Shown: piece after piece, positions 4,451-47,364 of the stretch
How the letters are laid out: the number at the start of each line of letters is the position of its first letter
Position numbering within the stretch: the first letter of the stretch is position 1
Sequence record: MZ956761.1
DNA: 64,000 bases
Direction: 5' to 3' (one strand)
DNA from: a phage
The notes under the pieces: model-generated
What the model was told of the DNA's origin: nothing
The model's input: the letters and a program-made list of their open reading frames with translations, nothing else
The model's database searches: none
Position numbers and translations under genes: made by a program

Positions 4451-5653
4451 ATGAAAGTATGCATTTTTATGGCTCGAGGTCTTGAAGGTTGTGGTGTAAC
4501 TAAATTTTCTCTTGAGCAACGTGATTGGTTTATTAAAAATGGTCATGAAGTAACTTTGGTTTATGCTAAAGATAAATCATTTACTCGTAACTGCGCGCAC
4601 GATTATAAATCATTTTCAATTCCGGTTTTATTGGCAAAAGAATACGATAAAACACTTAAGCTGGTAAATGATTGTGATATTCTAATTATCAATTCAGTTC
4701 CTGCTACTTCAGTTGAAGAAGACACTATTAATAACTATAAAAAAATTATTGATAACATTAAACCTTCGGTTCGTGTTGTAGTTTATCAACATGACCATTC
4801 TTCTCTTTCTTTGCGACGAAATTTGGGATTAGAAGAAACTGTTCGTCGAGCTGATGTTATTTTTAGCCATTCTGATAATGGTGATTTTAATAAAGTTCTG
4901 ATGAAAGAATGGTATCCAGAAACTGTTTCTCTGTTTGATGATATTGAAGAAGCGCCGACAGTATATAACTTTCAGCCTCCTATGGATATTGCGAAGGTTC
5001 GGTCAACCTACTGGAAAGATGTTTCTGAAATTAACATGAATGTCAACCGTTGGATTGGTCGTACGACTACATGGAAGGGTTTTTATCAGATGTTTGATTT
5101 TCACGAAAAACATCTTAAACCTGCAGGACTAAGTACTATTATGGAAGGTCTGGAACGTTCTCCAGCATTCATTCCTATTAAAGAAAAAGGAATTCCATAC
5201 GAGTATTATCGTCTTCATCAAGTAGACCAAATTAAAATTGCTCCTAATTTGCCAACGCAAATTCTTGACCGTTATGTAAATAGCGAAATGCTTGAGCGTA
5301 TGAGTAAATCCGGATTTGGTTATCAGTTGAGTAAGTTGGATAAAAAATATCTACAACGTTCTTTAGAATATACTCATCTCGAGCTTGGTGCATGTGGAAC
5401 AATTCCGGTATTTTGGAAATCTACTGGCGAAAATTTAAAATTCCGTGTTGATAATACTCCTTTGACCTCACATGATAGCGGTATCATTTGGTTTGATGAA
5501 AATGATATGGAATCAACATTCGAGCGTATTAAAGAACTGTCATCTGACCGAGCTCTTTATGACCGTGAGCGAGAAAAAGCGTATGAATTTTTGTATCAGC
5601 ATCAAGATTCAAGCTTCTGCTTTAAAGAACAGTTTGACATTATTACAAAATAA
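4451..5653 (+). CDS. agt: DNA alpha-glucosyltransferase
   Basis: 400 aa; N-terminus matches recalled T4 alpha-gt; strong SD GAGGA. Confidence 0.92.
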   Translation: MKVCIFMARGLEGCGVTKFSLEQRDWFIKNGHEVTLVYAKDKSFTRNCAHDYKSFSIPVLLAKEYDKTLKLVNDCDILIINSVPATSVEEDTINNYKKIIDNIKPSVRVVVYQHDHSSLSLRRNLGLEETVRRADVIFSHSDNGDFNKVLMKEWYPETVSLFDDIEEAPTVYNFQPPMDIAKVRSTYWKDVSEINMNVNRWIGRTTTWKGFYQMFDFHEKHLKPAGLSTIMEGLERSPAFIPIKEKGIPYEYYRLHQVDQIKIAPNLPTQILDRYVNSEMLERMSKSGFGYQLSKLDKKYLQRSLEYTHLELGACGTIPVFWKSTGENLKFRVDNTPLTSHDSGIIWFDENDMESTFERIKELSSDRALYDREREKAYEFLYQHQDSSFCFKEQFDIITK

Positions 5654-5676
5654 AGGGCTTCGGCCCTTTAGCTTTA
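5653..5676 (+). terminator. rho-independent terminator candidate
   Basis: AAGGGC-TTCG-GCCCTT hairpin then T-rich. Confidence 0.6.
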
Positions 5677-5692
5677 TACGGAGTTTGATATA

Positions 5693-9679: not shown

Positions 9680-10366
9680 ATGAAACTGTCTAAAGATACT
9701 ACTGCTCTGCTCAAAAATTTCGCTACTATTAACTCTGGCATTATGCTTAAATCCGGTCAATTTATTATGACTCGTGCAGTTAATGGTACAACTTACGCGG
9801 AAGCAAATATTTCTGACGTTATTGATTTTGATGTAGCAATTTACGATTTGAACGGTTTTCTCGGTATTCTGTCCCTAGTTAATGACGATGCAGAAATTTC
9901 CCAGTCAGAAGATGGAAATATTAAAATTGCTGATGCTCGTTCAACAATTTTTTGGCCAGCAGCCGATCCGAGTACAGTAGTTGCTCCTAATAAACCAATT
10001 CCATTCCCGGTAGCATCTGTTGTTACTGAAATTAAAGCTGAAGACCTTCAACAGCTGTTGCGTGTATCTCGCGGTCTGCAGATTGATACAATTGCTATCA
10101 CAGTAAAAGAAGGTAAAATCATAATTAACGGTTTTAATAAAGTAGAAGATTCTGCTTTGACCCGCGTTAAATATTCTTTGACTCTTGGTGATTATGATGG
10201 TGAAAATACATTTAATTTCATTATCAATATGGCAAATATGAAAATGCAACCAGGAAATTATAAACTTCTGCTCTGGGCAAAAGGTAAACAAGGTGCTGCT
10301 AAATTTGAAGGTGAACACGCAAATTATGTAGTAGCTCTTGAAGCTGATTCTACCCACGATTTTTAA
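9680..10366 (+). CDS. 45: sliding clamp gp45
   Basis: 228 aa; matches recalled T4 gp45. Confidence 0.96.
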   Translation: MKLSKDTTALLKNFATINSGIMLKSGQFIMTRAVNGTTYAEANISDVIDFDVAIYDLNGFLGILSLVNDDAEISQSEDGNIKIADARSTIFWPAADPSTVVAPNKPIPFPVASVVTEIKAEDLQQLLRVSRGLQIDTIAITVKEGKIIINGFNKVEDSALTRVKYSLTLGDYDGENTFNFIINMANMKMQPGNYKLLLWAKGKQGAAKFEGEHANYVVALEADSTHDF

Positions 10367-10368
10367 TA

Positions 10369-10388
10369 GAGGGCTTCGGCCCTTTATA
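10369..10388 (+). terminator. terminator/attenuator hairpin
   Basis: AGGGC-TTCG-GCCCT hairpin then TTTAT. Confidence 0.55.
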
Positions 10389-10417
10389 ATTTACACTAAA
10401 ACTTGAATGAGGAAATT

Positions 10418-11943: not shown

Positions 11944-12312
11944 ATGATTGAAATTACTCTTAAAAAACCTGAAGATTTTCTGAAAGTAAAAGAAACTTTG
12001 ACTCGTATGGGAATTGCTAATAATAAAGATAAAGTTCTGTATCAGTCCTGCCACATTCTTCAGAAAAAAGGACTATACTATATCGTTCATTTTAAAGAAA
12101 TGCTTCGTATGGATGGCCGTCAGGTTGAAATGACAGAAGAAGATGAAGTTCGTCGTGATTCGATTGCGTGGCTGTTAGAAGATTGGGGACTGATTGAAAT
12201 CGTTCCTGGTCAAAGAACTTTTATGAAAGATTTAACCAATAACTTCCGAGTTATTTCTTTTAAACAAAAACATGAGTGGAAACTCGTTCCTAAATATACG
12301 ATTGGTAATTAA
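11944..12312 (+). CDS. regA: translational repressor RegA
   Basis: 122 aa; matches recalled T4 RegA. Confidence 0.93.
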   Translation: MIEITLKKPEDFLKVKETLTRMGIANNKDKVLYQSCHILQKKGLYYIVHFKEMLRMDGRQVEMTEEDEVRRDSIAWLLEDWGLIEIVPGQRTFMKDLTNNFRVISFKQKHEWKLVPKYTIGN

Positions 12313-12313
12313 T

Positions 12314-12535
12314 ATGACTGCTATAACTCCACAAGAATACATGGCGTCTCTTAAAGAAAAATATAATCTTTCTGCAACAGAAACACTTTTTGATTTACCA
12401 GAAAACCTCCAACTAAAATTTCAGGTAGAATTTCAAAAATTAGTTCACCCAGAACAAAAACACTTTACCGCAGTGGTTAAGTCAATTAATGCAGATGGAT
12501 TAACAATTTTTCACCGACAACTGGTATTAATTTAA
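12314..12535 (+). CDS. hypothetical protein
   Basis: 73 aa from ATG 12314 right after regA stop. Confidence 0.5.
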   Translation: MTAITPQEYMASLKEKYNLSATETLFDLPENLQLKFQVEFQKLVHPEQKHFTAVVKSINADGLTIFHRQLVLI

Positions 12536-12537
12536 GC

Positions 12538-12560
12538 AAGGGGCTTCGGCCCCTTATTTG
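12538..12560 (+). terminator. rho-independent terminator candidate
   Basis: GGGGC-TTCG-GCCCC hairpin + TTATTTG. Confidence 0.6.
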
Positions 12561-12613: not shown

Positions 12614-15310
12614 ATGAAAGAATTTTATATCTCTATCGAAACAGTCGGAAATAACATTGTTGAGCGTTATATTGATGAAAATGGAAAGGAACGTACTCGT
12701 GAAGTAGAATATCTTCCGACTATGTTTAGGCATTGTAAGGAAGAGTCAAAATACAAAGACATTTATGGTAAAAACTGTGCTCCTCAAAAATTTCCATCAA
12801 TGAAAGATGCACGAGACTGGATGAAGCGAATGGAAGACATCGGTCTCGAAGCTCTCGGTATGAACGATTTTAAACTCGCTTATATCAGTGATACATATGG
12901 TTCAGAAATTGTTTATGACCGAAAATTTGTTCGTGTAGCTAACTGTGACATTGAGGTTACTGGTGATAAATTTCCTGACCCAATGAAAGCAGAATATGAA
13001 ATTGATGCTATCACTCATTATGATTCAATTGACGACCGTTTTTACGTCTTTGATTTGTTGAATTCAATGTACGGTTCAGTATCAAAATGGGACGCAAAGT
13101 TAGCTGCTAAGCTTGACTGTGAAGGTGGTGATGAAGTTCCTCAAGAAATTCTTGACCGAGTAATTTATATGCCATTTGATAATGAGCGTGATATGCTCAT
13201 GGAATATATTAATCTCTGGGAACAGAAACGACCTGCTATTTTTACTGGTTGGAATATTGAGGGATTTGACGTTCCGTATATCATGAATCGCGTTAAAATG
13301 GTTCTCGGCGAACGTAGTATGAAACGCTTCTCTCCAATCGGTCGAGTAAAATCTAAACTAATTCAAAATATGTACGGTAGCAAAGAAATTTATTCTATTG
13401 ATGGCGTATCTATTCTTGATTATTTAGATTTATACAAGAAGTTTGCATTTACTAATTTGCCATCGTTCTCTTTGGAATCAGTTGCTCAACATGAAACCAA
13501 AAAAGGTAAATTGCCGTACGATGGTCCTATTAATAAACTTCGTGAGACTAATCATCAACGATACATTAGTTATAACATCATTGACGTAGAATCAGTTCAA
13601 GCAATTGATAAAATTCGTGGGTTTATCGATCTAGTTTTAAGTATGTCTTATTACGCTAAAATGCCTTTTTCTGGTGTAATGAGTCCTATTAAAACTTGGG
13701 ATGCTATTATTTTTAACTCACTGAAAGGTGAACATAAGGTTATTCCTCAACAAGGTTCGCACGTTAAACAGAGTTTTCCAGGTGCATTTGTGTTTGAACC
13801 TAAACCGATTGCTCGTCGATACATTATGAGTTTTGACTTGACGTCTCTGTATCCTAGCATTATTCGTCAGGTTAACATTAGTCCTGAGACTATTCGCGGG
13901 CAGTTTAAAGTTCATCCAATTCATGAATATATCGCAGGAACAGCTCCTAAGCCAAGTGATGAATATTCTTGCTCTCCGAATGGATGGATGTATGATAAGC
14001 ACCAAGAAGGTATCATTCCAAAGGAAATCGCTAAAGTATTTTTCCAGCGTAAAGATTGGAAAAAGAAAATGTTCGCGGAAGAAATGAATGCCGAAGCTAT
14101 TAAAAAGATTATTATGAAAGGTGCAGGGTCTTGCTCAACTAAACCAGAAGTTGAACGATATGTTAAGTTCAGTGATGATTTCTTAAACGAATTATCGAAT
14201 TACACCGAATCTGTTCTTAACAGTCTGATTGAAGAATGTGAAAAAGCGGCTACACTTGCTAACACAAATCAGCTGAACCGTAAAATTCTTATTAACAGTC
14301 TTTATGGTGCTCTTGGTAATATTCATTTCCGCTACTATGATTTGCGAAATGCTACTGCTATCACAATTTTCGGTCAAGTTGGTATTCAGTGGATTGCTCG
14401 TAAAATTAATGAATATCTGAATAAAGTATGTGGAACTAATGGTGAAGATTTCATCGCAGCAGGTGATACTGATTCGGTATATGTTTGTGTAGATAAAGTA
14501 ATTGAAAAAGTAGGTCTTGACCGCTTTAAAGAACAAAATGATTTAGTTGAATTCATGAATCAGTTTGGTAAGAAAAAGATGGAACCTATGATTGATGTTG
14601 CATATCGTGAGTTATGTGATTATATGAATAACCGCGAGCATCTGATGCATATGGACCGTGAAGCTATTTCTTGCCCTCCGCTTGGTTCAAAGGGTGTTGG
14701 TGGATTTTGGAAAGCGAAAAAACGTTATGCTCTGAACGTTTATGATATGGAAGATAAGCGATTTGCTGAACCGCATCTAAAAATCATGGGTATGGAAACT
14801 CAGCAGAGTTCAACACCAAAAGCAGTACAAGAAGCTCTCGAAGAAAGTATTCGTCGTATTCTTCAGGAAGGTGAAGAGTCTGTCCAAGAATACTACAAGA
14901 ACTTTGAGAAAGAATATCGTCAACTTGATTATAAAGTTATTGCTGAAGTAAAAACTGCGAACGATATAGCGAAATATGATGATAAAGGTTGGCCAGGATT
15001 TAAATGTCCGTTCCATATTCGTGGGGTGCTAACTTATCGTCGAGCTGTTAGTGGTTTAGGTGTAGCTCCAATTTTGGATGGAAATAAAGTAATGGTTCTT
15101 CCATTACGTGAAGGAAATCCATTTGGTGACAAGTGCATTGCTTGGCCGTCGGGCACAGAACTTCCAAAAGAAATTCGTTCTGACGTACTGTCTTGGATTG
15201 ACTACTCAACTTTGTTCCAAAAATCGTTTGTTAAACCGCTTGCGGGCATGTGTGAATCGGCTGGTATGGACTATGAAGAAAAAGCTTCGTTAGACTTCCT
15301 GTTTGGCTGA
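12614..15310 (+). CDS. 43: DNA polymerase gp43 (family B)
   Basis: 898 aa; exo and pol motifs; matches recalled T4 gp43. Confidence 0.97.
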   Translation: MKEFYISIETVGNNIVERYIDENGKERTREVEYLPTMFRHCKEESKYKDIYGKNCAPQKFPSMKDARDWMKRMEDIGLEALGMNDFKLAYISDTYGSEIVYDRKFVRVANCDIEVTGDKFPDPMKAEYEIDAITHYDSIDDRFYVFDLLNSMYGSVSKWDAKLAAKLDCEGGDEVPQEILDRVIYMPFDNERDMLMEYINLWEQKRPAIFTGWNIEGFDVPYIMNRVKMVLGERSMKRFSPIGRVKSKLIQNMYGSKEIYSIDGVSILDYLDLYKKFAFTNLPSFSLESVAQHETKKGKLPYDGPINKLRETNHQRYISYNIIDVESVQAIDKIRGFIDLVLSMSYYAKMPFSGVMSPIKTWDAIIFNSLKGEHKVIPQQGSHVKQSFPGAFVFEPKPIARRYIMSFDLTSLYPSIIRQVNISPETIRGQFKVHPIHEYIAGTAPKPSDEYSCSPNGWMYDKHQEGIIPKEIAKVFFQRKDWKKKMFAEEMNAEAIKKIIMKGAGSCSTKPEVERYVKFSDDFLNELSNYTESVLNSLIEECEKAATLANTNQLNRKILINSLYGALGNIHFRYYDLRNATAITIFGQVGIQWIARKINEYLNKVCGTNGEDFIAAGDTDSVYVCVDKVIEKVGLDRFKEQNDLVEFMNQFGKKKMEPMIDVAYRELCDYMNNREHLMHMDREAISCPPLGSKGVGGFWKAKKRYALNVYDMEDKRFAEPHLKIMGMETQQSSTPKAVQEALEESIRRILQEGEESVQEYYKNFEKEYRQLDYKVIAEVKTANDIAKYDDKGWPGFKCPFHIRGVLTYRRAVSGLGVAPILDGNKVMVLPLREGNPFGDKCIAWPSGTELPKEIRSDVLSWIDYSTLFQKSFVKPLAGMCESAGMDYEEKASLDFLFG

Positions 15311-15322
15311 TAGAATAAATCT

Positions 15323-15346
15323 AGGGACCTCCGGGTCCCTTTTTCA
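15323..15346 (+). terminator. rho-independent terminator
   Basis: AGGGACC-TCCG-GGTCCCT hairpin + TTTTT. Confidence 0.8.
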
Positions 15347-15423
15347 TACAAGTAATATAAATCTATACTTATGAAAAACAGATGATTCTGGACCTTTAGA
15401 ATTCCCCAAAAAATTTTCACAAA

Positions 15424-15457
15424 ACTGTTTACAAGACTGTTCTTCCATGGTACTATA
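15424..15457 (+). promoter_or_regulatory. T4 early promoter
   Basis: GTTTACA -35, 17-nt spacer, TGgTACTAT -10. Confidence 0.7.
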
Positions 15458-15493
15458 CAACTATCAACTAATACGGATTTGGAGAATAAAATG
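15448..15493 (+). repeat. 46-nt promoter/leader repeat, identical to 42647-42692
   Basis: TGGTACTATACAACTATCAACTAATACGGATTTGGAGAATAAAATG, exact second copy elsewhere. Confidence 0.9.
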
Positions 15494-15727
15494 AAAATTG
15501 TTATGGGATGCTTAGCAGTTTGTTTAGTTGCATTAGCAGCTGTTCCATTTATTGATATTGAAAATGATACTCAGAATGTGATTGAATCTAATACTGTTAT
15601 TCACATGAATGGTAAAGTATCAACAAAAATTGATGATAATCTTCATATGAATACTAATGGAACGCTGGGTGTTCAATTAGGTAATACCTGTGTAAGCACT
15701 ACTGGAGTAATTACTACTTGTATTTGA
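15491..15727 (+). CDS. hypothetical secreted/membrane protein
   Basis: 78 aa from ATG after GGAG; N-terminal hydrophobic signal-like segment. Confidence 0.5.
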   Translation: MKIVMGCLAVCLVALAAVPFIDIENDTQNVIESNTVIHMNGKVSTKIDDNLHMNTNGTLGVQLGNTCVSTTGVITTCI

Positions 15728-15737
15728 GGAAATTATT

Positions 15738-16118
15738 ATGAAAATCGCTATTTTGGTTATTGCATTAGGTCTTACTGGTTGTGTAGCTCAAGGACCGGTA
15801 GTAAATCAGTCTGATGTAGGAAAAATTGTAAACTGTTCAAGCAAATTTTATAATCCTAATGTCAAGTGTTATAAAGAAGCTCCAAAACAGACAGTAGAAC
15901 AAATGCAGGCGAATTTTGACGAAGCTATTCGTCCAGATGAATCTGCTCAAGCATATCGTAATTCGGATGTAATTACACGCGAAGAAAAAATTGAAAACTA
16001 CTGCGCTGAACTTTGGGCTAATTGGGCTAATAATTACCAATGGCGTACTGGTAAAAATGCTCCGATGGAGTATGTAGTGAATTCTTATAATTCATGTGTA
16101 AAAAATTTGACTAAGTGA
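15738..16118 (+). CDS. hypothetical lipoprotein
   Basis: 126 aa; signal peptide with lipobox LTGC. Confidence 0.55.
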   Translation: MKIAILVIALGLTGCVAQGPVVNQSDVGKIVNCSSKFYNPNVKCYKEAPKQTVEQMQANFDEAIRPDESAQAYRNSDVITREEKIENYCAELWANWANNYQWRTGKNAPMEYVVNSYNSCVKNLTK

Positions 16119-21143: not shown

Positions 21144-21173
21144 TTTACAAGCCGACAAGACTATGGTATAGTA
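21140..21173 (+). promoter_or_regulatory. T4 early promoter with flanking inverted repeat
   Basis: GTTTACA -35, TGgTATAGT -10; CAAGACT/AGTCTTG inverted repeat around -10. Confidence 0.7.
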
Positions 21174-21201
21174 GTCTTGTTGGTTAAATGAGGAGATTGT
21201 T

Positions 21202-21643: not shown

Positions 21644-21676
21644 CTGTTTACAAGCTGATAGAGTTGTGTTATAGTA
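21643..21676 (+). promoter_or_regulatory. T4 early promoter with inverted repeat
   Basis: GTTTACA -35, TGtTATAGT -10; GCTGATAGA/TCTATCAGC inverted repeat spans -10. Confidence 0.7.
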
Positions 21677-21706
21677 ATTCTATCAGCTAATCGCGGAGAA
21701 AAGAAA

Positions 21707-21961
21707 ATGATGCTAGTTAATAGAGAATATCAGTTTAAATCAGAAGAAGATTTGGAAAAATTCGCGAGTGGTTGTGAACTGAATAGACGCACAGCTAAAG
21801 TCATAGGATTAAAACCCTTTACAGTTCTAGATTGTGAAGTTTCTAAATTCCGCAGAGGGTGTTCTATTAGCGGTCATGCTCTGGTTGATGGGAACACATT
21901 TTTCTTTGTTTTTAGCGTCAGAGAACTTTTATTGATTAACGAACTTGAGGAAATAAAATAG
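21707..21961 (+). CDS. hypothetical protein
   Basis: 84 aa, ATG after GAGAAAAGAAA. Confidence 0.5.
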   Translation: MMLVNREYQFKSEEDLEKFASGCELNRRTAKVIGLKPFTVLDCEVSKFRRGCSISGHALVDGNTFFFVFSVRELLLINELEEIK

Positions 21962-22025
21962 TTTACTTTTGTTTTAAACATGTTATTATAGACTTATCAA
22001 AACAAACGAGTAAATGGAGAACAAA

Positions 22026-22208
22026 ATGTCTAAAGTATCAGGTTATCAATTATTAACACAAGAACAACGTTCAGAGATGGATTCTTTACAAGAACGGTGT
22101 CAGCATAGAAATAACGCACTTGATTCATTTTTATTAGTTGAATATGAAAACTTGTGCTCTAGACTTGAAAAAGAATATGTTCATCAACATGAAGGAGGAG
22201 AAGAATGA
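22026..22208 (+). CDS. hypothetical protein
   Basis: 60 aa from ATG 22026 after GGAGA (an in-frame ATG at 22014 is also possible). Confidence 0.45.
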   Translation: MSKVSGYQLLTQEQRSEMDSLQERCQHRNNALDSFLLVEYENLCSRLEKEYVHQHEGGEE

Positions 22209-22282
22209 AACTGAAATCACCAATTATTGCAATTTGTCTGTTTGCTTCTACTAGTGTTTACTTTTGTTGAAAATTGAGATAC

Positions 22283-25666: not shown

Positions 25667-25700
25667 CCGGTTTACTTTCCACAATGAGTATGGTATAATA
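25667..25700 (+). promoter_or_regulatory. T4 early promoter
   Basis: GTTTACT -35, 17-nt spacer, TGgTATAAT. Confidence 0.7.
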
Positions 25701-30223: not shown

Positions 30224-31539
30224 CATTTGATGATTTGACCGAAGGCCAGAAAAATGCCTTTAACATTGTTATGAAGGCTATTAAAGAAAAGAAACACCAT
30301 GTAACTATTAATGGACCTGCCGGTACCGGTAAGACTACTCTTACTAAGTTCATCATTGAAGCCTTAATATCTACGGGCGAAACTGGCATTATTTTAGCAG
30401 CTCCTACTCATGCAGCTAAAAAGATTCTTTCAAAACTGTCAGGGAAAGAAGCGAGTACTATTCACAGTATTCTCAAAATTAACCCGGTAACATATGAAGA
30501 AAACGTTCTTTTTGAACAAAAAGAAGTACCGGATTTAGCTAAATGCAGAGTATTAATCTGCGACGAAGTGTCAATGTATGATAGAAAGCTATTCAAAATT
30601 CTGCTTTCAACTATCCCGCCGTGGTGTACTATAATTGGAATAGGCGATAATAAGCAAATTAGACCTGTTGACCCAGGAGAAAACACCGCTTATATCAGTC
30701 CGTTCTTTACACATAAAGATTTTTATCAGTGTGAACTCACTGAAGTTAAACGCAGTAATGCTCCTATTATTGATGTAGCTACTGATGTTCGCAACGGTAA
30801 GTGGATTTATGATAAAGTTGTTGACGGGCATGGAGTACGTGGATTTACTGGTGATACCGCTTTACGCGATTTTATGGTAAATTATTTTTCAATTGTAAAA
30901 TCACTAGATGATTTGTTTGAAAATCGCGTAATGGCATTTACGAATAAATCTGTCGACAAGTTAAATAGCATTATTCGCAAAAAGATTTTTGAAACTGATA
31001 AAGATTTTATCGTTGGCGAAATTATTGTAATGCAGGAACCATTAATTAAAACATATAAAATTGACGGAAAGCCTGTGTCAGAAATTATTTTTAATAACGG
31101 ACAATTAGTTCGTATTATAGAAGCAGAGTATACATCAACATTTGTTAAAGCTCGCGGTGTTTCTGGAGAATATCTAATTCGTCATTGGGATTTAACAGTA
31201 GAAACTTACGGCGATGATGAATATTATCGTGAAAAGATTAAAATAATTTCATCTGATGAAGAGCTGTATAAGTTTAACTTATTTTTAGGTAAAACAGCAG
31301 AAACTTATAAAAATTGGAATAAAGGTGGAAAAGCTCCGTGGAGTGATTTTTGGGATGCTAAATCACAGTTTAGTAAAGTGAAAGCACTTCCTGCATCAAC
31401 ATTCCACAAAGCTCAGGGCATGTCTGTAGACCGTGCTTTCATCTATACGCCTTGTATTCATTATGCAGACGCTGAATTGGCTCAGCAGCTTCTTTATGTT
31501 GGTGTCACTCGTGGTCGTTATGATGTGTTTTATGTGTGA
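30220..31539 (+). CDS. dda: Dda DNA helicase (SF1)
   Basis: 439 aa; Walker A GPAGTGKTT; T4 synteny. Confidence 0.92.
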   Translation: MTFDDLTEGQKNAFNIVMKAIKEKKHHVTINGPAGTGKTTLTKFIIEALISTGETGIILAAPTHAAKKILSKLSGKEASTIHSILKINPVTYEENVLFEQKEVPDLAKCRVLICDEVSMYDRKLFKILLSTIPPWCTIIGIGDNKQIRPVDPGENTAYISPFFTHKDFYQCELTEVKRSNAPIIDVATDVRNGKWIYDKVVDGHGVRGFTGDTALRDFMVNYFSIVKSLDDLFENRVMAFTNKSVDKLNSIIRKKIFETDKDFIVGEIIVMQEPLIKTYKIDGKPVSEIIFNNGQLVRIIEAEYTSTFVKARGVSGEYLIRHWDLTVETYGDDEYYREKIKIISSDEELYKFNLFLGKTAETYKNWNKGGKAPWSDFWDAKSQFSKVKALPASTFHKAQGMSVDRAFIYTPCIHYADAELAQQLLYVGVTRGRYDVFYV

Positions 31540-31545
31540 GGATAT

Positions 31546-31806
31546 ATGATTAACATCAATTCAAAATATTTAAATCGTCTAATAGATGGTATAAAGAAGC
31601 ATACTAATAAGCAAGATAACCTCAGTGTTATGGTAACAGGAGCTGAGCTCCTTTATAAGCTTAATCTTATAAGTGATACTATACTAGCAATTAAACGAAT
31701 TGAAAAACAATCATATCACAGTAATACAGATACGGTAATTACATTAGATGAAAGTGTCTGTAAGCTGCTGATTAAATTTGAGGAAGCTATTCGTGGAAAT
31801 AACTAA
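31546..31806 (+). CDS. hypothetical protein
   Basis: 86 aa ORF. Confidence 0.45.
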   Translation: MININSKYLNRLIDGIKKHTNKQDNLSVMVTGAELLYKLNLISDTILAIKRIEKQSYHSNTDTVITLDESVCKLLIKFEEAIRGNN

Positions 31807-34065: not shown

Positions 34066-34098
34066 TAGTTTACAAACTCTTGGGACCAGAGTATAATG
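34065..34098 (+). promoter_or_regulatory. T4 early promoter with -10 inside a hairpin
   Basis: GTTTACA -35, TATAAT at 34092-34097 flanked by GGGACCA/TGGTCCC inverted repeat. Confidence 0.7.
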
Positions 34099-34141
34099 GT
34101 CCCGTGGAGTATAAAATCTTTTTAACAAGTGAGAGATAACT

Positions 34142-34663: not shown

Positions 34664-34708
34664 TATACATCAGTAGTTGATTATGGTACTATATCAATAT
34701 CAACTACT
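34664..34708 (+). promoter_or_regulatory. early-promoter-like element with stem-loop (diverged copy of the repeat family)
   Basis: TGGTACTAT -10 enclosed by 10-bp inverted repeat AGTAGTTGAT/ATCAACTACT; weak -35. Confidence 0.45.
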
Positions 34709-34735
34709 GATACAGAAAATAACTTGGAGAATAAA

Positions 34736-35005
34736 ATGGAAAACTTAATTATCATCGAGCAATCTTTCAATGATTATGGTATGGCTTATGGTTATCGTGC
34801 GATAATGGAAGATTCTCGTGGATGTGTTATCGATATTGCTGAATGTAAAGATTTACTGCAGCTTTTGAAGATTGTTCGTAAAAATTGGGATTGTGAAAAC
34901 ATTAAAGCTCGTGTTGTAACGGAAGAAGAAACTGTTTTTCATGATGTAAAATTCGCTAAAGGTGCTGCTACTCTTCTGAAACGTATCGCTCCACTGTTTA
35001 ATTAA
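34736..35005 (+). CDS. hypothetical protein
   Basis: 89 aa from ATG 34736 after GGAGAATAAA. Confidence 0.5.
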   Translation: MENLIIIEQSFNDYGMAYGYRAIMEDSRGCVIDIAECKDLLQLLKIVRKNWDCENIKARVVTEEETVFHDVKFAKGAATLLKRIAPLFN

Positions 35006-35840: not shown

Positions 35841-36212
35841 ATGTTTAAAATCGGTAAAAAATATCGCATTCGTGAAGGTGAAGAACAGAAATATCTACTT
35901 TCTGCTAGTAATAGGAATAGTTCTATTAATGCTGTAATATTGACTAGTGAATTTATCGTTGAAGATATGAAAGGTCATAATGTTACAATGATTAGTACAG
36001 CATCTGGAAATGATGGAAAAATTCTTCATAGTTGTCAGAGTAATGTTCTAATTTATGATGAAGAATTTGACTTCTTCAAAGAAGTTTCCGAAGATTTTGA
36101 TTTTGAATGTACTATTACTATGAAATCTGGTGACCCTCTTTCTTTTACAGTTAAAGATGAAAGAAGTCGCTTGAGAATTATTAGTCTTCTTCAAGCCATT
36201 AAATTTAAGTGA
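35841..36212 (+). CDS. hypothetical protein
   Basis: 123 aa ORF directly following. Confidence 0.5.
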   Translation: MFKIGKKYRIREGEEQKYLLSASNRNSSINAVILTSEFIVEDMKGHNVTMISTASGNDGKILHSCQSNVLIYDEEFDFFKEVSEDFDFECTITMKSGDPLSFTVKDERSRLRIISLLQAIKFK

Positions 36213-36478
36213 AAATTATGAAATATATTAATCGTTCTATCGCAGCATTAGTATTAGCAGTGTCTTTAGCAGGATGTACTGATGCTGATAATGCAACCAA
36301 AGTTTTGTCTTCAAGTGGTTTTACTAATATTGAAATCACTGGATACAATTGGTTTGGTTGCTCTGAAAATGATTTCCAACACACTGGATTTCGTGCTATT
36401 GGACCTACCGGGCAGAAAGTAGAAGGAACAGTATGTTCTGGTCTATTCTTCAAGGATTCGACTATCCGTTTTAAATAA
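36209..36478 (+). CDS. hypothetical lipoprotein
   Basis: 89 aa; signal peptide with lipobox LAGC. Confidence 0.55.
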   Translation: MKIMKYINRSIAALVLAVSLAGCTDADNATKVLSSSGFTNIEITGYNWFGCSENDFQHTGFRAIGPTGQKVEGTVCSGLFFKDSTIRFK

Positions 36479-36501
36479 AAGGCCTTCGGGCCTTTAGCTT
36501 T
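36479..36501 (+). terminator. rho-independent terminator candidate
   Basis: AAGGCC-TTCG-GGCCTT hairpin then T-rich. Confidence 0.6.
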
Positions 36502-36547
36502 ATGATTATTGGAGTATAATATTCCCGAAACCAAACGAGGATAAGTG

Positions 36548-38365: not shown

Positions 38366-38395
38366 TTTACTTTACCACAAGGATGTGGTATAATT
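38362..38395 (+). promoter_or_regulatory. T4 early promoter
   Basis: GTTTACT -35, 17-nt spacer, TGgTATAAT; CCACA/TGTGG inverted repeat. Confidence 0.7.
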
Positions 38396-40822: not shown

Positions 40823-41761
40823 ATGTACAATATTAAATGCCTGACCAAAAACGAACAAGCTGAAATTGTTAAACTGTATTCAAGTGGTAATTACACCCAA
40901 CAGGAATTGGCTTATTGGAAGGATGTATCGGTTGATACAATCCGTCGTGTTTTGAAAAATGCTGAAGAAGCTAAACGCCCTAAAGTTACTATTAGCGGTG
41001 ATATTACAGTTAAAGTTAATAGCGATGCAGTTATTGCTCCAGTTGCTAAATCTGACATTATTTGGAATGCATCTAAAAAATTCATTTCAATTACTGTTGA
41101 CGGTGTAACTTATAACGCAACTCCTAATACTCATTCAAACTTCCAGGAAATTCTTAATCTGCTTGTAGCAGATAAGTTGGAAGAAGCGGCACAAAAAATT
41201 AATGTTCGTCGCGCTGTTGAAAAATATATTTCCGGCGATGTTCGAATTGAAGGCGGAAGCTTGTTCTATCAAAATATCGAATTACGGTCTGGTTTAGTTG
41301 ATCGTATTCTCGATTCGATGGAAAAAGGTGAAAACTTTGAATTTTATTTTCCGTTCTTGGAAAATCTGCTGGAAAACCCAAGCCAGAAAGCGGTATCTCG
41401 ACTCTTTGATTTCTTGGTAGCAAACGATATTGAAATTACAGAAGATGGTTACTTCTATGCTTGGAAAGTAGTTCGTGACAACTACTTTGACTGTCACTCA
41501 AACACCTTTGATAACAGTCCTGGTAAAGTAGTTAAAATGCCGCGTACTCGTGTGAATGACGATGATACACAAACTTGTTCTCGTGGTCTGCATGTGTGTT
41601 CTAAATCTTATATTCGTCACTTTGGCAGTTCAACCAGCCGAGTTGTAAAAGTTAAAGTACATCCACGTGATGTAGTATCAATTCCGATTGATTACAACGA
41701 TGCTAAAATGCGTACCTGCCAATACGAAGTAGTTGAAGACGTTACTGAACAATTTAAATAA
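40823..41761 (+). CDS. rIIB: rIIB protein
   Basis: 312 aa immediately downstream of rIIA. Confidence 0.9.
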   Translation: MYNIKCLTKNEQAEIVKLYSSGNYTQQELAYWKDVSVDTIRRVLKNAEEAKRPKVTISGDITVKVNSDAVIAPVAKSDIIWNASKKFISITVDGVTYNATPNTHSNFQEILNLLVADKLEEAAQKINVRRAVEKYISGDVRIEGGSLFYQNIELRSGLVDRILDSMEKGENFEFYFPFLENLLENPSQKAVSRLFDFLVANDIEITEDGYFYAWKVVRDNYFDCHSNTFDNSPGKVVKMPRTRVNDDDTQTCSRGLHVCSKSYIRHFGSSTSRVVKVKVHPRDVVSIPIDYNDAKMRTCQYEVVEDVTEQFK

Positions 41762-41780
41762 GGGCTTCGGCCCTTATCAT
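41761..41780 (+). terminator. terminator/attenuator hairpin
   Basis: AGGGC-TTCG-GCCCT hairpin; weak T tract. Confidence 0.45.
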
Positions 41781-41793
41781 ATTAAGGAAAATT

Positions 41794-41988
41794 ATGTTAG
41801 GTTATCAAGCACGAGTAAAAGAAGAATACGATCAATTAATGCTCAAAATTAATGCACTGAGCAAATTTTTAGAAAGCACAAAGTTTCTAACGGTTAGTGC
41901 AGTTGAGCAAGAACTGCTGCTTTCACAGTTCATCTCAATGAAATCTTATGCTGAGTGTCTAGAGAAAAGAATCGCACAATTCAAATAA
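41794..41988 (+). CDS. hypothetical protein
   Basis: 64 aa, ATG after AAGGAAAAT. Confidence 0.5.
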   Translation: MLGYQARVKEEYDQLMLKINALSKFLESTKFLTVSAVEQELLLSQFISMKSYAECLEKRIAQFK

Positions 41989-41991
41989 AAT

Positions 41992-42015
41992 AAGGGCTTC
42001 GGCCCTTTTGTTTTA
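41992..42015 (+). terminator. rho-independent terminator
   Basis: AAGGGC-TTCG-GCCCTT hairpin + TTGTTTT. Confidence 0.75.
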
Positions 42016-42051
42016 AGAGAAATTATGATTCCGACATAAAGGAAAGTTTAA

Positions 42052-42609
42052 ATGCAGAAAACGAATCCGGGTTTGCAGAGACTATTTCAGATTCCGTCAT
42101 TTACCCTATCGAACAGTGACTTGACTAGTGAAATGAAGGCCAAAATTGCTGATACTGCAAGATATTCTTTAAAGCAAAATCCAAATCAGGATAAGGCAGA
42201 AGTTATCGAAAGATGCCGTATCGCTGTGTACGCAGAGTTTTTTGTGGCAGATTGGCTGAGCGGATATGTCAATAAAGGCCAAGAAGATGTCGATGATCCG
42301 TACACATATGCATGGGATGTTTTAGCACATCCAAAATACTGCGGGCTTCGTGTAGAAGTTAAGACACATCAAACTGACTCACGTTGGATTTCGGTGACAA
42401 CAGGATGCAGCGGAGAGTATCCATATGGTTCTGGAATAAATCTAGGGCCCATTCTAAATCATCAAGTCGCTGACTGTATAATTATATTCAACACTAAAGA
42501 AATTCATCCAGGTGTCATCCAGTACACTCCGAAGTTCATCGGTGACAGAGAAGACCTTCGTAAAGTTGTAAGAAAAAGCAACTACAACGGATGGTATCTT
42601 TCCATTTAA
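42052..42609 (+). CDS. denB: endonuclease IV DenB
   Basis: 185 aa; size and position downstream of rIIB as in T4. Confidence 0.75.
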   Translation: MQKTNPGLQRLFQIPSFTLSNSDLTSEMKAKIADTARYSLKQNPNQDKAEVIERCRIAVYAEFFVADWLSGYVNKGQEDVDDPYTYAWDVLAHPKYCGLRVEVKTHQTDSRWISVTTGCSGEYPYGSGINLGPILNHQVADCIIIFNTKEIHPGVIQYTPKFIGDREDLRKVVRKSNYNGWYLSI

Positions 42610-42622
42610 AAAATTTCACAAA

Positions 42623-42656
42623 ATGGTTTACATACCACAAGGACCGTGGTACTATA
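42623..42656 (+). promoter_or_regulatory. T4 early promoter
   Basis: GTTTACA -35, 17-nt spacer, TGgTACTAT. Confidence 0.7.
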
Positions 42657-42692
42657 CAACTATCAACTAATACGGATTTGGAGAATAAAATG
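42647..42692 (+). repeat. 46-nt promoter/leader repeat, identical to 15448-15493
   Basis: exact 46-nt identity including -10, leader, SD and ATG. Confidence 0.9.
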
Positions 42693-42896
42693 TTTACTAC
42701 AGCTGAATTAAAACGAGCAAAAGCTAAGAAAGGGCAAGGGAAATATAAAGCTGAACTAGTTAAAGAACTTCAATTTGCTGAGGCTGAGTTGAATTCGATG
42801 ATTATTCAAAATGCTCCAGAAACTGAAATTGCTCTTAAACGTATTGCGAATAAGTGTCTTCGTGATGCAATCGTTGATCTTTTAGCGGATTATTGA
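42690..42896 (+). CDS. hypothetical protein
   Basis: 68 aa from ATG after GGAGAATAAA. Confidence 0.5.
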   Translation: MFTTAELKRAKAKKGQGKYKAELVKELQFAEAELNSMIIQNAPETEIALKRIANKCLRDAIVDLLADY

Positions 42897-42901
42897 GTAA
42901 A

Positions 42902-43165
42902 ATGAAATTTAAATTTTATTATGCTAAGCATAAAATAACTGATGAGTTTGTGTCAGTTGAATATTCTAGCGATGATGAAGGTATGATTTATACTCGCTTA
43001 GGATTATCGCATTGGGAGTCTGATCAGCCTTATTTTTCAACTCCTGAAGAAATTACACGCTTAGTTAATGGTCATATGAATGATCACTGGAATGTAATTC
43101 TTTCAGATAGTCTTAAAGCGGCTATTAATAGTAATGAAATGAAAATCGCTGAGATTGAACTATGA
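42902..43165 (+). CDS. hypothetical protein
   Basis: 87 aa from ATG 42902. Confidence 0.45.
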   Translation: MKFKFYYAKHKITDEFVSVEYSSDDEGMIYTRLGLSHWESDQPYFSTPEEITRLVNGHMNDHWNVILSDSLKAAINSNEMKIAEIEL

Positions 43166-43347
43166 GTTCATTATGGTGGTGTTTTGTTTGGTTAATTAGT
43201 ATTCCATTAATTTGTTTAACATTTACTTTTGTAATGAGGTTATTATGAAAATTTTGAATTCTGTGCTTATTGCTTGTGCGTGGTGGGTTGCGCAAGTTTC
43301 AGCGGTAGTAGTTGGTATTCACATTTATTACGAATATTTTTAAAAAA

Positions 43348-43381
43348 GTTGTTTACAAGACTGTTCCTCTGTGGTATTATT
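43348..43381 (+). promoter_or_regulatory. T4 early promoter (member of the repeat family)
   Basis: GTTTACAAGACTGTTC as at 15427; TGgTATTAT -10; 9-bp inverted repeat CTGTTCCTC/GAGGAACAG bridges the promoter and the SD. Confidence 0.7.
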
Positions 43382-43408
43382 ACCCTATCAACTACGGAGG
43401 AACAGAAA

Positions 43409-43522
43409 ATGAAAAAGATTGTTAAAGCTATATGGAATGTAGTTATAATACTAGTAGTTTTGAGTATATTCCCAATCGTTTTAATGATTGATGTATTAAA
43501 CGCTTACTTTGGATTTATGTGA
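43409..43522 (+). CDS. hypothetical small membrane peptide (37 aa)
   Basis: ATG after GGAGGAACAG; hydrophobic. Confidence 0.35.
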   Translation: MKKIVKAIWNVVIILVVLSIFPIVLMIDVLNAYFGFM

Positions 43523-44664: not shown

Positions 44665-44820
44665 ATGAAATTTGTTCACGGTATAGCCTTTTTCTGTTGG
44701 TTCTTTTTATGCATCGGAACAGTAATAACTGGAGAAACTTCAGTATTTTTGCAAGCATCAGCTCAGGGCGTATTAGCGATTTTATCATTATTCGCGTACA
44801 TTGGTTCTAAAAATAGTTGA
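44665..44820 (+). CDS. ac: small membrane protein Ac (acriflavine sensitivity)
   Basis: 51 aa hydrophobic ORF after GAGGAAAAT; size and position as T4 ac. Confidence 0.6.
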   Translation: MKFVHGIAFFCWFFLCIGTVITGETSVFLQASAQGVLAILSLFAYIGSKNS

Positions 44821-46605: not shown

Positions 46606-46633
46606 AGGGAGAGCCTCGGCTCTCCCTTTTTTA
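46606..46633 (+). terminator. rho-independent terminator
   Basis: AGGGAGAGC-CTCG-GCTCTCCCT hairpin + TTTTTT. Confidence 0.85.
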
Positions 46634-46653: not shown

Positions 46654-46687
46654 AACGGTTTACAACCAAAGCATACTGTGGTACTAT
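46654..46687 (+). promoter_or_regulatory. T4 early promoter (motA)
   Basis: GTTTACA -35, 17-nt spacer, TGgTACTAT; followed by diverged copy of the leader repeat. Confidence 0.7.
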
Positions 46688-46728
46688 ACAACTATCAACT
46701 ACTGATACAGAATTACGGAGATTAGAAA

Positions 46729-47364
46729 ATGTCTAAAGTAACTTACATCATCAAAGCTTCTAACGATGTTCTGAATGAAAAAACTGCTGCGATTTTAATT
46801 ACCATTGCTAAGAAAGATTTCATTACAGCTGCAGAAGTTCGTGAGGTGCATCCAGATTTAGGTAACGCAGTAGTTAATAGTAATATTGGGGTATTGATTA
46901 AAAAAGGCCTGGTGGAGAAATCTGGTGATGGATTAATCATTACAGGCGAAGCTCAGGATATTATTTCAAATGCAGCAACTTTATATGCGCAGGAAAATGC
47001 TCCTGAACTACTGAAAAAACGAGCAACTCGTAAAGCTCGTGAGATTACTTCCGATATGGAAGAAGATAAAGACTTCATGTTAAAACTTTTAGATGAAAAT
47101 GGATTTGTTCTTAAAAAGGTTGAAACTTACCGCAGTAACTATCTTGCTATTTTAGAAAAACGCACTCACGGAATTCGTAATTTTGAAATTAACAACAATG
47201 GAAATATGCGAATTTTTGGATACAAAATGATGGAACATCATATTCAGAAATTTACTGACATCGGAATGTCATGTAAAATCGCTAAAAACGGTAATGTGTA
47301 TCTTGACATTAAACGCTCGGCAGAAAACATTGAAGCAGTAATCACCGTAGCATCTGAACTGTGA
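46729..47364 (+). CDS. motA: middle-transcription activator MotA
   Basis: 211 aa; size and position as T4 MotA. Confidence 0.88.
   Translation: MSKVTYIIKASNDVLNEKTAAILITIAKKDFITAAEVREVHPDLGNAVVNSNIGVLIKKGLVEKSGDGLIITGEAQDIISNAATLYAQENAPELLKKRATRKAREITSDMEEDKDFMLKLLDENGFVLKKVETYRSNYLAILEKRTHGIRNFEINNNGNMRIFGYKMMEHHIQKFTDIGMSCKIAKNGNVYLDIKRSAENIEAVITVASEL

Follow-up and report, generated by a model that had tools for sequence, protein, structure and literature searches.

A 46-nucleotide repeat in Escherichia phage ADUt lies within two putative immediate-early promoter/leader cassettes at the borders of variable small ORFs

The window analyzed in this work, i.e. the whole stretch of 64,000 nucleotides under study, belongs to Escherichia phage ADUt (Tequatrovirus), and its position 1 corresponds to position 20936 of the ADUt record. 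A 2-kb probe around the repeat described here was 100% identical to OQ466432.1 and showed 90-98% identity with around 500 T4-like genomes. According to the annotation and to synteny with T4, the first of the two loci of interest (locus A) is located directly 3' of gene 43, the DNA polymerase gene (12614-15310), and its terminator, and the second (locus B) directly 3' of denB (42052-42609). They share a 46-mer, TGGTACTATACAACTATCAACTAATACGGATTTGGAGAATAAAATG, that occurs exactly twice in the window, both times in the + strand, at the coordinates 15448-15493 and 42647-42692 that had been correctly given in the first-pass annotation of this DNA. Zero matches were obtained in 100 shuffles, even with three mismatches permitted, so the repeat is not due to chance. 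As had also been proposed, the identity covers the -10, the leader, the Shine-Dalgarno sequence (SD) and the start codon: it begins at the extended -10 and finishes at the ATG, beyond which the two loci read ATGAAAATTGTT and ATGTTTACTACA, respectively. The three bases 5' of the repeat are CCA in one case and CCG in the other, and farther upstream the spacers differ, with similarity returning in the GTTTAC hexamer (-35) and in the tract rich in A/T. The ORFs located downstream, of 78 and 68 amino acids, show no BLASTP similarity to each other and are members of different PHROG families, which agrees with the previous description of the two copies as driving unrelated ORFs. The features of both loci, along with related elements elsewhere in the window, are listed in Table 1.

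Table 1. Coordinates of the repeat copies, of the elements surrounding them and of related cassettes in the window.
Feature	Position	Strand	Basis or remarks
Hairpin of the intrinsic terminator 3' of gene 43, AGGGACCTCCGGGTCCCT plus a run of T	15323..15340	+	Terminator scan
Cassette A, UP-like A/T-rich element AAAAATTTTCACAAAACT	15409..15426	+	Aligned with other early promoters, repeat family D1
Cassette A, promoter core: -35 GTTTAC (15427-15432), 18-nt spacer, extended -10 TGGTACTAT (15448-15456)	15427..15456	+	T4-specific pattern
Copy A of the exact 46-nt repeat	15448..15493	+	Exact-repeat search
Cassette A, leader (34 nt; putative start site near 15463)	15457..15490	+	SD/RegB motif GGAGAATAAAA at 15481-15491
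ORF79 (78 aa, phrog_4189), variable cargo between cassette A and imm.1	15491..15727	+	Comparison with relatives
Two tandem promoter-plus-ORF modules inserted at the -35 of the sp promoter	21646..22261	+	GTTTAC at 21646, 21961 and 22256
Cassette P34663	34663..34738	+	13-nt perfect inverted repeat around the -10; GGAGAATAAAATG same as in A and B
Cassette B, promoter	42610..42655	+	Pattern and alignment; begins immediately 3' of the stop codon of denB
Copy B of the exact 46-nt repeat	42647..42692	+	Exact-repeat search
Cassette B, leader (34 nt)	42656..42689	+	SD/RegB motif GGAGAATAAAA at 42680-42690
ORF68 (phrog_4535; PST ORF269), variable cargo	42690..42896	+	Comparison with relatives
ORF87 (phrog_2390; PST ORF268), variable cargo	42902..43165	+	Comparison with relatives
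Cassette C (before ndd.4)	43351..43411	+	Shares -35/spacer with A; leader different
motA cassette	46658..46731	+	-10 and first 14 nt of the leader same as in A and B

The organization of the two cassettes is that of T4 early promoters, which are textbook material and have reportedly been compiled by Wilkens and Rueger and by Miller and coworkers in 2003. In cassette B, the UP-like element (AAAATTTCACAAAATG), which also aligns with other promoters of repeat family D1, is followed by the -35 hexamer GTTTAC (42626-42631), the spacer ATACCACAAGGACCG and the extended -10 TGGTACTAT (42647-42655); in both A and B the spacer has 18 nt and the -10 is TACTAT, preceded by TGG. The cassette A promoter is the orthologue of the T4 promoter found after gene 43 and before imm.1 (ending in CAACTACTGATACGGATTTGGAGAATGAAATG), and that of cassette B is the orthologue of the T4 promoter found after denB and before the ndd.6 region (ending in CAACTACTGATACGGATTTGGAGAATAAAATG), one position being different between the two T4 sequences. 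The site orthologous to cassette A is annotated as a 'predicted early promoter' in phage fPS-90, and that of cassette B as a T4 early promoter in phage SA20RB. A literature search on start-site mapping in T4 turned up nothing relevant. T4 early promoters have been described as consisting of an UP element, -35, TGn and -10, to which further conserved positions outside the sigma-70 elements are added (Hinton, 2010; PMC2988021). The ADUt cassettes resemble them in the UP-like A/T tract, the GTTTAC at -35, the TGn extended -10 of the TAnnAT form and the additional conserved positions, as well as in their genomic location after gene 43 and after denB and in the early-transcribed strand. Nothing material differs, the ADUt leader being 3 nt shorter at both loci and the first ORFs being other ones. 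Orthology and motif matches thus point to A and B being T4-type, sigma-70-dependent immediate-early promoters with their leaders.

These two promoters are part of a larger family. With a T4-specific pattern, 16 early promoters were identified in the window, all of them + strand, and visual inspection contributed one more, the sp promoter at 22256, for a total of 17. A generic sigma-70 scan of the window failed to separate them from the background (97 vs. 82 expected, and 72 vs. 71), so that only the T4-specific pattern picks them out. When the segment from TGn-10 to ATG was compared among the 17 promoters, A and B were the sole pair with 100% identity, the median of the family being 60%, and together with the motA cassette and P34663 they constituted a subfamily at 80% identity or above. 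The diverged copies reported in the first-pass annotation are real at 43351 (ndd.4), 46658 (motA) and 34663. The cassettes are mosaic, as illustrated by cassette A, which shares its -35 and spacer with the ndd.4 cassette and its -10-to-ATG segment with B. More members of the family were located at other loci of phage G8 and in uncultivated viral contigs from IMG/VR; scans of this collection with the exact leader and with its 22-nt core gave 2 and 14 loci, respectively, the T4-like contigs being too few for population counts.

Within the leaders of A and B, the sequence GGAGAATAAAA is a perfect match to GG*AGRAYARAA, the consensus that a review of T4 post-transcriptional control (PMC3014915) gives for strong RegB/S1 sites (Durand et al., 2006). 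The window contains four matches to GGAGRAYARAA (15481, 22016, 34726 and 42680), each of them ending at the ATG of a cassette-driven ORF, compared to 0.33 expected, and none of 100 shuffles reached that number. GGAG was present in the SD of 11 out of 16 promoter-proximal genes vs. 3 out of 60 other genes (p=2e-7). RegB requires an unstructured target RNA, and the leader RNAs of A and B are predicted to be unstructured (z=0.15 and -0.05, respectively), with the GGA triplet predicted to be unpaired. An Rfam scan of the whole window gave zero matches, which means that the leader does not belong to the known structured RNAs. Both cassettes are therefore alike to strong RegB/S1 sites in the perfect consensus, in its overlap with the SD of an early gene and in the predicted lack of structure of the leader. 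From the motif match, RegB cleavage is predicted at A and B, and the RegB site would travel with the promoter as one cassette. Another block of the repeat, ATACGGATTT, fits no named motif, yet it is identical in A and B.

The terminator of gene 43, separated by 87 nt from the -35 of cassette A downstream, is kept in all the relatives compared and is annotated as a terminator in phage fPS-90. Terminator hairpins were also located just upstream of the motA cassette (46606-46627) and upstream of the cassette at 25670. In the case of cassette B, the terminator scan detected neither a terminator nor a hairpin between the denB stop codon and the -35. Several copies had been said to have inverted repeats around the -10, and this was borne out by the family as a whole: perfect inverted repeats of at least 8 nt bracket the -10 in 5 of the 17 promoters, vs. 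1.6% of random positions. A and B are not among them, since no stem-loop was found around their -10, where there are 4-nt stems only, i.e. the background level. The -10-bracketing stems are nearly invariant among orthologues, leaving no covariation to score. In cassette C, the -10 is bracketed by a 9-nt perfect inverted repeat (upstream arm, CTGTTCCTC; a 15-bp stem in the RNA fold) that includes the SD; the read-through RNA is predicted to fold with -23.2 kcal/mol and to have GGAGG buried, the RNA from its own promoter being predicted as open. In the T4 genes e, soc and I-TevI, a hairpin masks the ribosome-binding site on read-through RNA, and the site becomes free on the RNA made from an internal promoter. 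Cassette C, not A or B, is similar to these cases in having a read-through hairpin predicted to hide the SD. In e, soc and I-TevI, however, late promoters are found inside early transcripts, whereas at cassette C, where the likeness is an RNA-fold prediction, both promoters would be early.

The conservation of the cassettes and of the ORFs next to them was then compared at both loci in 12 genomes (ADUt, T4, PST, T2, PYps10T, SHFML-11, PaulHMueller, ECO78, GiZh, MLF4, HY03 and AUBRB02), to which were added three single loci, two of them locus A (from G8 and from one uncultivated contig) and the third locus B (from RB55). The cassette was kept while the flanked ORFs varied between relatives. The first gene at locus A is imm.1 in T4, PST and SHFML-11, and a third ORF in T2 and ECO78; ORF79 followed by imm.1 is the arrangement in ADUt, PYps10T, PaulHMueller, GiZh, MLF4, HY03, AUBRB02 and G8. 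ORF79 is thus absent in T4, PST and SHFML-11, and also in T6, another ORF being in its place in T2 and ECO78; a coverage of 80% or more of the region 15200-15800 was seen in 320 of 515 records. Locus B contains ORF68, ORF87 and ndd.6 in ADUt, ORF68 and ORF87 in PST (as annotated), ORF68, ORF87, ndd.6 and ndd.5 in PaulHMueller, ORF68 alone in T2 and ECO78, ORF87 alone in PYps10T, GiZh, SHFML-11, MLF4, HY03 and AUBRB02, and an ndd.6 remnant in T4 and RB55. In 115 of about 500 records, ORF68 immediately follows cassette B; this ORF is absent in T4, PYps10T, GiZh, SHFML-11, MLF4, HY03 and AUBRB02.

The leaders themselves could be grouped in four types: long (L, CAACTACTGATACGG), short-G (sG, CAACTGATACGG), short-A (sA, CAACTAATACGG) and C-type (CAACTACGGAGGAAC). 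The difference between long and short leaders is the loss of one ACT from ACTACT, a change that could recur by slippage. ORFs are not always tied to the same cassette, the same ORF being found behind different leader types: ORF87 is preceded by L, sG, C, C' and C'', ORF79 by sA, L, L' and sG, and imm.1 by L, sA and sG. Conversely, the same leader type also precedes different ORFs, and four loci (A, B, C and one more) have the C-type leader. Such reassortment of leaders and ORFs could not be produced by point mutation.

The position of the joints was established from BLAST chains between ADUt and its relatives and by direct inspection. At locus B the joints are at 42669, in the leader, or at 42692, in the ATG. 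The T4 version of this locus corresponds to a deletion between GAATAAAATG in the cassette and TAATGAAATG near the 3' end of ORF87, as a result of which the last eight codons of ORF87 survive as a mini-ORF (MKIAEIEL) fused to cassette B and coupled to ndd.6. At locus A, the ORF79 indel is bounded by ATGAAAAT, common to the starts of ORF79 and imm.1 (15497-15504). The ORF behind cassette P34663 (34736-35005) is partly deleted in T4, SHFML-11, ECO78 and HY03, and the deletion starts 6-10 nt after the ATG.

The clearest joint case is at 21646-22261, outside the coordinates considered in the first-pass annotation. This region has one promoter (sp) in T4, two in ECO78 and three in ADUt, and the modules are joined at the -35 hexamers (21651, 21973 and 22256). 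At least 80% of the stretch queried around it is covered by 17 of 452 records, and most of the sampled rows among these 452 match only from query positions 653-658, equivalent to 22252-22257 in the window, where the -35 at 22256 is located.

Elements of this kind have been described before. The definition of promoter-early stem-loops (PeSLs) comes from work on RB49/phi1 (Arbiol et al., 2010; PMC2839356), where PeSL mini-circles were detected experimentally, their crossovers lying in the interval from the -10 to the SD or ATG; the recombination system needs less than 50 bp of homology, and the existence of a dedicated recombinase was a question left open by the original authors (PMC2839356). 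The concept was later extended to PST and T4 (Comeau et al., 2014; PMC4122927), the PST elements being formed by an AT-rich region, -35, -10, SD and ATG, with the pattern TTTACW-N17-TAYWAT, and the exchange of the T4 ndd genes for PST ORF268/269 was given as an example (Figure 6A in PMC4122927). That published example is locus B of the window, PST ORF269 and ORF268 being ORF68 and ORF87, respectively. The early-promoter family and the PeSL model had therefore already been published for these same loci, and the first-pass annotation is an accurate rediscovery. Cassettes A and B are similar to PeSLs in their composite structure (AT-rich region, -35, -10, SD and ATG), which recurs throughout the genome, in their location at the borders of small variable ORFs and in the insertions, deletions or replacements that distinguish relatives, with joints between -10 and ATG; the joint positions in ADUt agree with the crossover zones of the RB49/phi1 mini-circles. 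They differ in that A and B lack a stem-loop of their own, with a terminator 87 nt upstream of A and none for B, and in that published PeSL stems are upstream of the promoter, whereas the stems in the window, where present, bracket the -10.

A further difference is that the association between indels and cassettes was not statistically stronger than at other gene junctions. Among 75 gene junctions in the 12-49.5 kb segment, compared with 11 sequences representing 10 relatives, an indel boundary was present at 7 of 16 early-promoter junctions vs. 18 of 59 others (odds ratio 1.8, Fisher one-sided p=0.24), a trend in the right direction in a small sample. ORF indels without an early promoter at their borders were numerous, being found at 12312-12532, 17267, 22606, 24379, 31539-31769, 35843-36216, 42030 and 44669-44818. 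The cassettes do take part in ORF turnover, and a driving role is not supported in this sample; the positions of the joints suggest that they may mediate exchanges. The proposal that these are PeSL-type shuffling cassettes hence holds for the composite structure, the turnover of the ORFs and the joints inside the element, fits loosely for an upstream stem-loop at A, and does not hold for one at B, for a stem-loop around the -10 of A and B or for indel enrichment. With these qualifications, interpreting the cassettes in terms of PeSL shuffling is supported by the sequence comparisons.

Taking all this into account, the reading we favor, with a probability of roughly 0.8, is that the repeat is the downstream half of two immediate-early promoter/leader cassettes, exchangeable as in the published PeSL model. 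Immediately after infection, host RNA polymerase would bind the UP element, the -35 GTTTAC and TGnTACTAT, with transcription beginning around 7 nt downstream of the -10. In the resulting leader of 29 nt, predicted to be unstructured, GGAGAATAAAA would be exposed, acting both as ribosome-binding site and as a strong site for the RegB/S1 endoribonuclease. Given that the ribosome-binding site would also be a RegB site, and by analogy with the T4 system, any ORF behind the cassette would obtain a strong but brief burst of early expression. In T4, the orthologue of cassette A drives imm.1, and that of cassette B the ndd.6-to-ndd cluster. The cassettes would be mosaics of exchangeable sub-blocks, with leader types and cargo reassorted between relatives, and since this reassortment takes place with joints inside the cassette, they may provide the recombination system of T4 with short stretches of homology that are portable.

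How special the perfect identity between A and B is in ADUt constitutes a separate matter. The near-identity of the two cassettes is ancestral in the genus, in which they are near-identical throughout (one A/B mismatch in T4, one in PST), and so it marks no recent event. Regarding the earlier view of the flanked ORFs as recently exchanged cargo, their variation between relatives is confirmed. The same leader type was found at A and B in ADUt (short-A), T4 and PYps10T (long) and PST (short-G), the other eight genomes being discordant. Concordance in 4 of 12 genomes, vs. approximately 2.9 expected by chance, is not significant, so that concerted evolution is not demonstrated. A private 3-nt deletion (CTG) in both ADUt copies with respect to T4 was also considered as a case of concerted evolution, and this was rejected, because no difference in length exists with respect to the common B allele of the ORF68 type, from which the ADUt one departs in one base.

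The locus-B allele of ADUt (CAACTAATACGG) was the sole 100% match among 424 records, the next best having one mismatch (the G/A), and the same string is common at locus A, with 100% identity in at least 30 records. The 46/46 identity is one G>A step away from the common locus-B allele (CAACTGATACGG, 45/46) and equals a common locus-A allele, this sole change removing the only difference between A and B within the 46 nt. All this would be expected if locus B had recently been converted by locus A, 27 kb away, over a short tract in the ADUt lineage, a gene conversion to which we would give somewhat less than even odds. Against it, only one transition is involved, co-conversion of flanking markers was not seen, and there is an ascertainment bias, the repeat having been chosen for being perfect. 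Besides, ADUt is 3-4% diverged from its nearest relative in this region (only 96.7% identity over 41800-43400), so that a single G>A is within the background divergence. The 46/46 identity could result either from a short A-to-B conversion tract or from a point mutation, the two being inseparable.

Regarding the cassettes in general, functional constraint alone, exerted by RNA polymerase, promoter escape, the ribosome and RegB/S1, could have kept A and B alike, with ORF turnover resulting from ordinary illegitimate or microhomology recombination. We consider this explanation unlikely, albeit with some arguments in its favor: most of the conserved blocks map to a known element, neither the enrichment at junctions nor the A/B concordance is significant, slippage in ACTACT could explain the long and short alleles, and several joints make use of 7-14 nt of homology around the ATG, something possible for any two T4 initiation regions. 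Yet leaders that are far less alike serve other early promoters in the window (median identity 60%, vs. 100% for A and B), the positions of ATACGGATTT are identical without corresponding to a named motif, and the C-type leader cannot be reached from the long one by point mutation, both of them preceding ORF87 at the same locus. The modules at 21.6-22.3 kb, joined exactly at the -35 hexamers, where most of the sampled rows of the 452 records start, also speak against constraint alone. The variety of joints in different events (at the -35, in the leader, at the ATG and inside an ORF) fits general homologous or microhomology recombination better than the fixed crossover site of autonomous mobile elements with a dedicated site-specific recombinase. 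This strong form of the PeSL mini-circle model could rely on the mini-circles detected in RB49/phi1 (PMC2839356) and on the tandem modules joined at GTTTAC, the topology expected from the integration of a circle; with no recombinase linked to the cassettes, it is improbable here.

An assembly or polishing artefact, in which reads from copy A would have been mis-mapped onto copy B, could be thought of for the unique base at locus B (42667), as the allele is unique to one record and the site is inside a repeat. It is highly improbable, the 46-nt repeat being shorter than a normal read, so that unique flanks would anchor the reads, and it would involve one base only, leaving the identity of the element unaffected. 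Even less credible, and at odds with the ADUt sequence itself, is a simple segmental duplication of a promoter and gene start, as could be thought from the A/B identity in T4, which extends 12 nt beyond the ATG (ATGAAAATCGCT), given that these extra 12 nt are the ORF87 tail left by the deletion, and that in ADUt the identity stops at the ATG without running into the genes, the upstream spacers differ and the ORFs are unrelated.

On its own, the identification of two exchangeable early promoter/leader cassettes matters little, since it finds again the T4 early-promoter family and the PeSL hypothesis at published loci. It can be used as a check, showing that a regulatory family that is real, together with the right model in the literature, can be recovered by reading nothing but the sequence. 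The fact that cassette junctions are not clearly more prone to indels in our sample tempers the claim of mediated shuffling. For T4 specialists, this work adds modest detail, i.e. the combination of the promoter with a consensus RegB site, the mosaics of sub-elements and some joints lying exactly on the -35 hexamer; the ndd.4 read-through hairpin and the enrichment in -10-bracketing repeats seem to be outside the published description of PeSLs. A more speculative extension, which at present we regard as doubtful, would be that the cassette constitutes a portable 'early burst' unit, made up of the promoter, a RegB-cleavable ribosome-binding site and, often, an inverted repeat around the -10 formed on read-through RNA only, with ectopic conversion keeping alike copies located tens of kilobases from one another. 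If this were true, a captured ORF would be expressed strongly, its expression would cease in a matter of minutes, and its translation would depend chiefly on its own promoter.

The early-promoter cassettes are, as judged from their sequences, mosaics at the level of sub-elements. Cassette A, the promoter and leader unit that follows gene 43, has its -35 and spacer (15427-15456) in common with the ndd.4 cassette (43351-43380), with one mismatch in 30 nt in T4. The segment from the -10 to the ATG of cassette A is common to cassette B, the equivalent unit after denB, and not to the ndd.4 cassette, and the cassette B spacer, ACCACAAGGACCGTGGT, is similar to that of the rIIA.1 promoter (42632-42650 versus 38371-38389). 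At the -35 (GTTTAC) of the sp promoter, ADUt carries a tandem insertion of two promoter-plus-ORF modules, of which ECO78 has one and T4 neither. The stretch containing both was covered to at least 80% in only 17 of 452 records. Intrinsic-terminator hairpins with the pattern (A)GGGCTTCGGCCC(T) make up a second repeat family in the window; they are located at the borders of gene clusters and adjoined by several indels (e.g. 42025-42038). Coordinates are listed in the table.

Features identified in the window
Feature	Position	Details
Module cargo 1	21646-22261	goF-like ORF, 84 aa, within this interval; phrog_2980
Module cargo 2	21646-22261	ORF, 60 aa, within this interval; phrog_37915
Terminator-hairpin repeats	5647-5677, 10363-10393, 12526-12555, 36473-36503, 41750-41790, 41986-42016	
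ndd.6-like ORF	43162-43248	28 aa (MSSLWWCFVWLISIPLICLTFTFVMRLL); 27/28 residues identical to T4 ndd.6
ORF87 tail	43132-43165	T4 counterpart: locus L006 (rc), about 1880-1910
Perfect inverted repeats bracketing the -10	21155-21180, 21653-21688, 21968-22006, 34669-34711, 43361-43405	
Predicted strong RegB/S1 sites	15481-15491, 22016-22026, 34726-34736, 42680-42690	match to GGAGRAYARAA

The stop codon of ORF87, the variable ORF downstream of cassette B, overlaps the ATG of the ndd.6-like ORF, which has no annotation in the ADUt record. The 8-codon ORF MKIAEIEL found 3' of cassette B in T4 represents what remains of the ORF87 C-terminus after a deletion between two AATRAAATG strings. An 18-nt string in the ORF87 tail, AATGAAATGAAAATCGCT, matches the T4 cassette-A/imm.1 junction exactly; it looks like the fossil of an older cassette-mediated event.

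The -10 hexamer is flanked by a perfect inverted repeat of 8-13 nt in five of the 17 early promoters, compared with 1.6% of random positions. The stem sequences are different at each of the five, and they are kept in relatives, with variation too slight for a covariation test. At the motB promoter (34068-34103), a palindromic element, GGGACCAGAGTATAATGGTCCC, includes the -10; in the orthologous promoter of phage MLF4 (L029) this element is flipped and reads GGGATCATTATACTCTGGTCCC, with a -10-like TATACT still on offer. The MLF4 change is probably an inversion via the inverted repeat.

In RNA reading through from upstream, the ndd.4 cassette (43355-43430) is predicted to form a hairpin with a 15-bp stem (-23.2 kcal/mol, z=-4.3) in which the SD of ndd.4, GGAGG, is buried, while RNA from its own promoter is predicted to be open (-1.6 kcal/mol). 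Because of this difference, translation of ndd.4 may depend on the promoter from which the transcript originates. With the T4 spacer variant CTGTTCTTC, pairing would survive via a G-U pair.

The consensus for strong RegB/S1 sites is matched perfectly four times in the window (0.33 expected), and in all four the 3' end of the predicted site coincides with the initiation codon of an ORF under the control of an early-promoter cassette. A GGAG-type SD is present in 11 of 16 promoter-proximal genes versus 3 of 60 other genes (p=2e-7). The early promoter and a predicted RegB-sensitive ribosome-binding site seem to constitute a single travelling unit.
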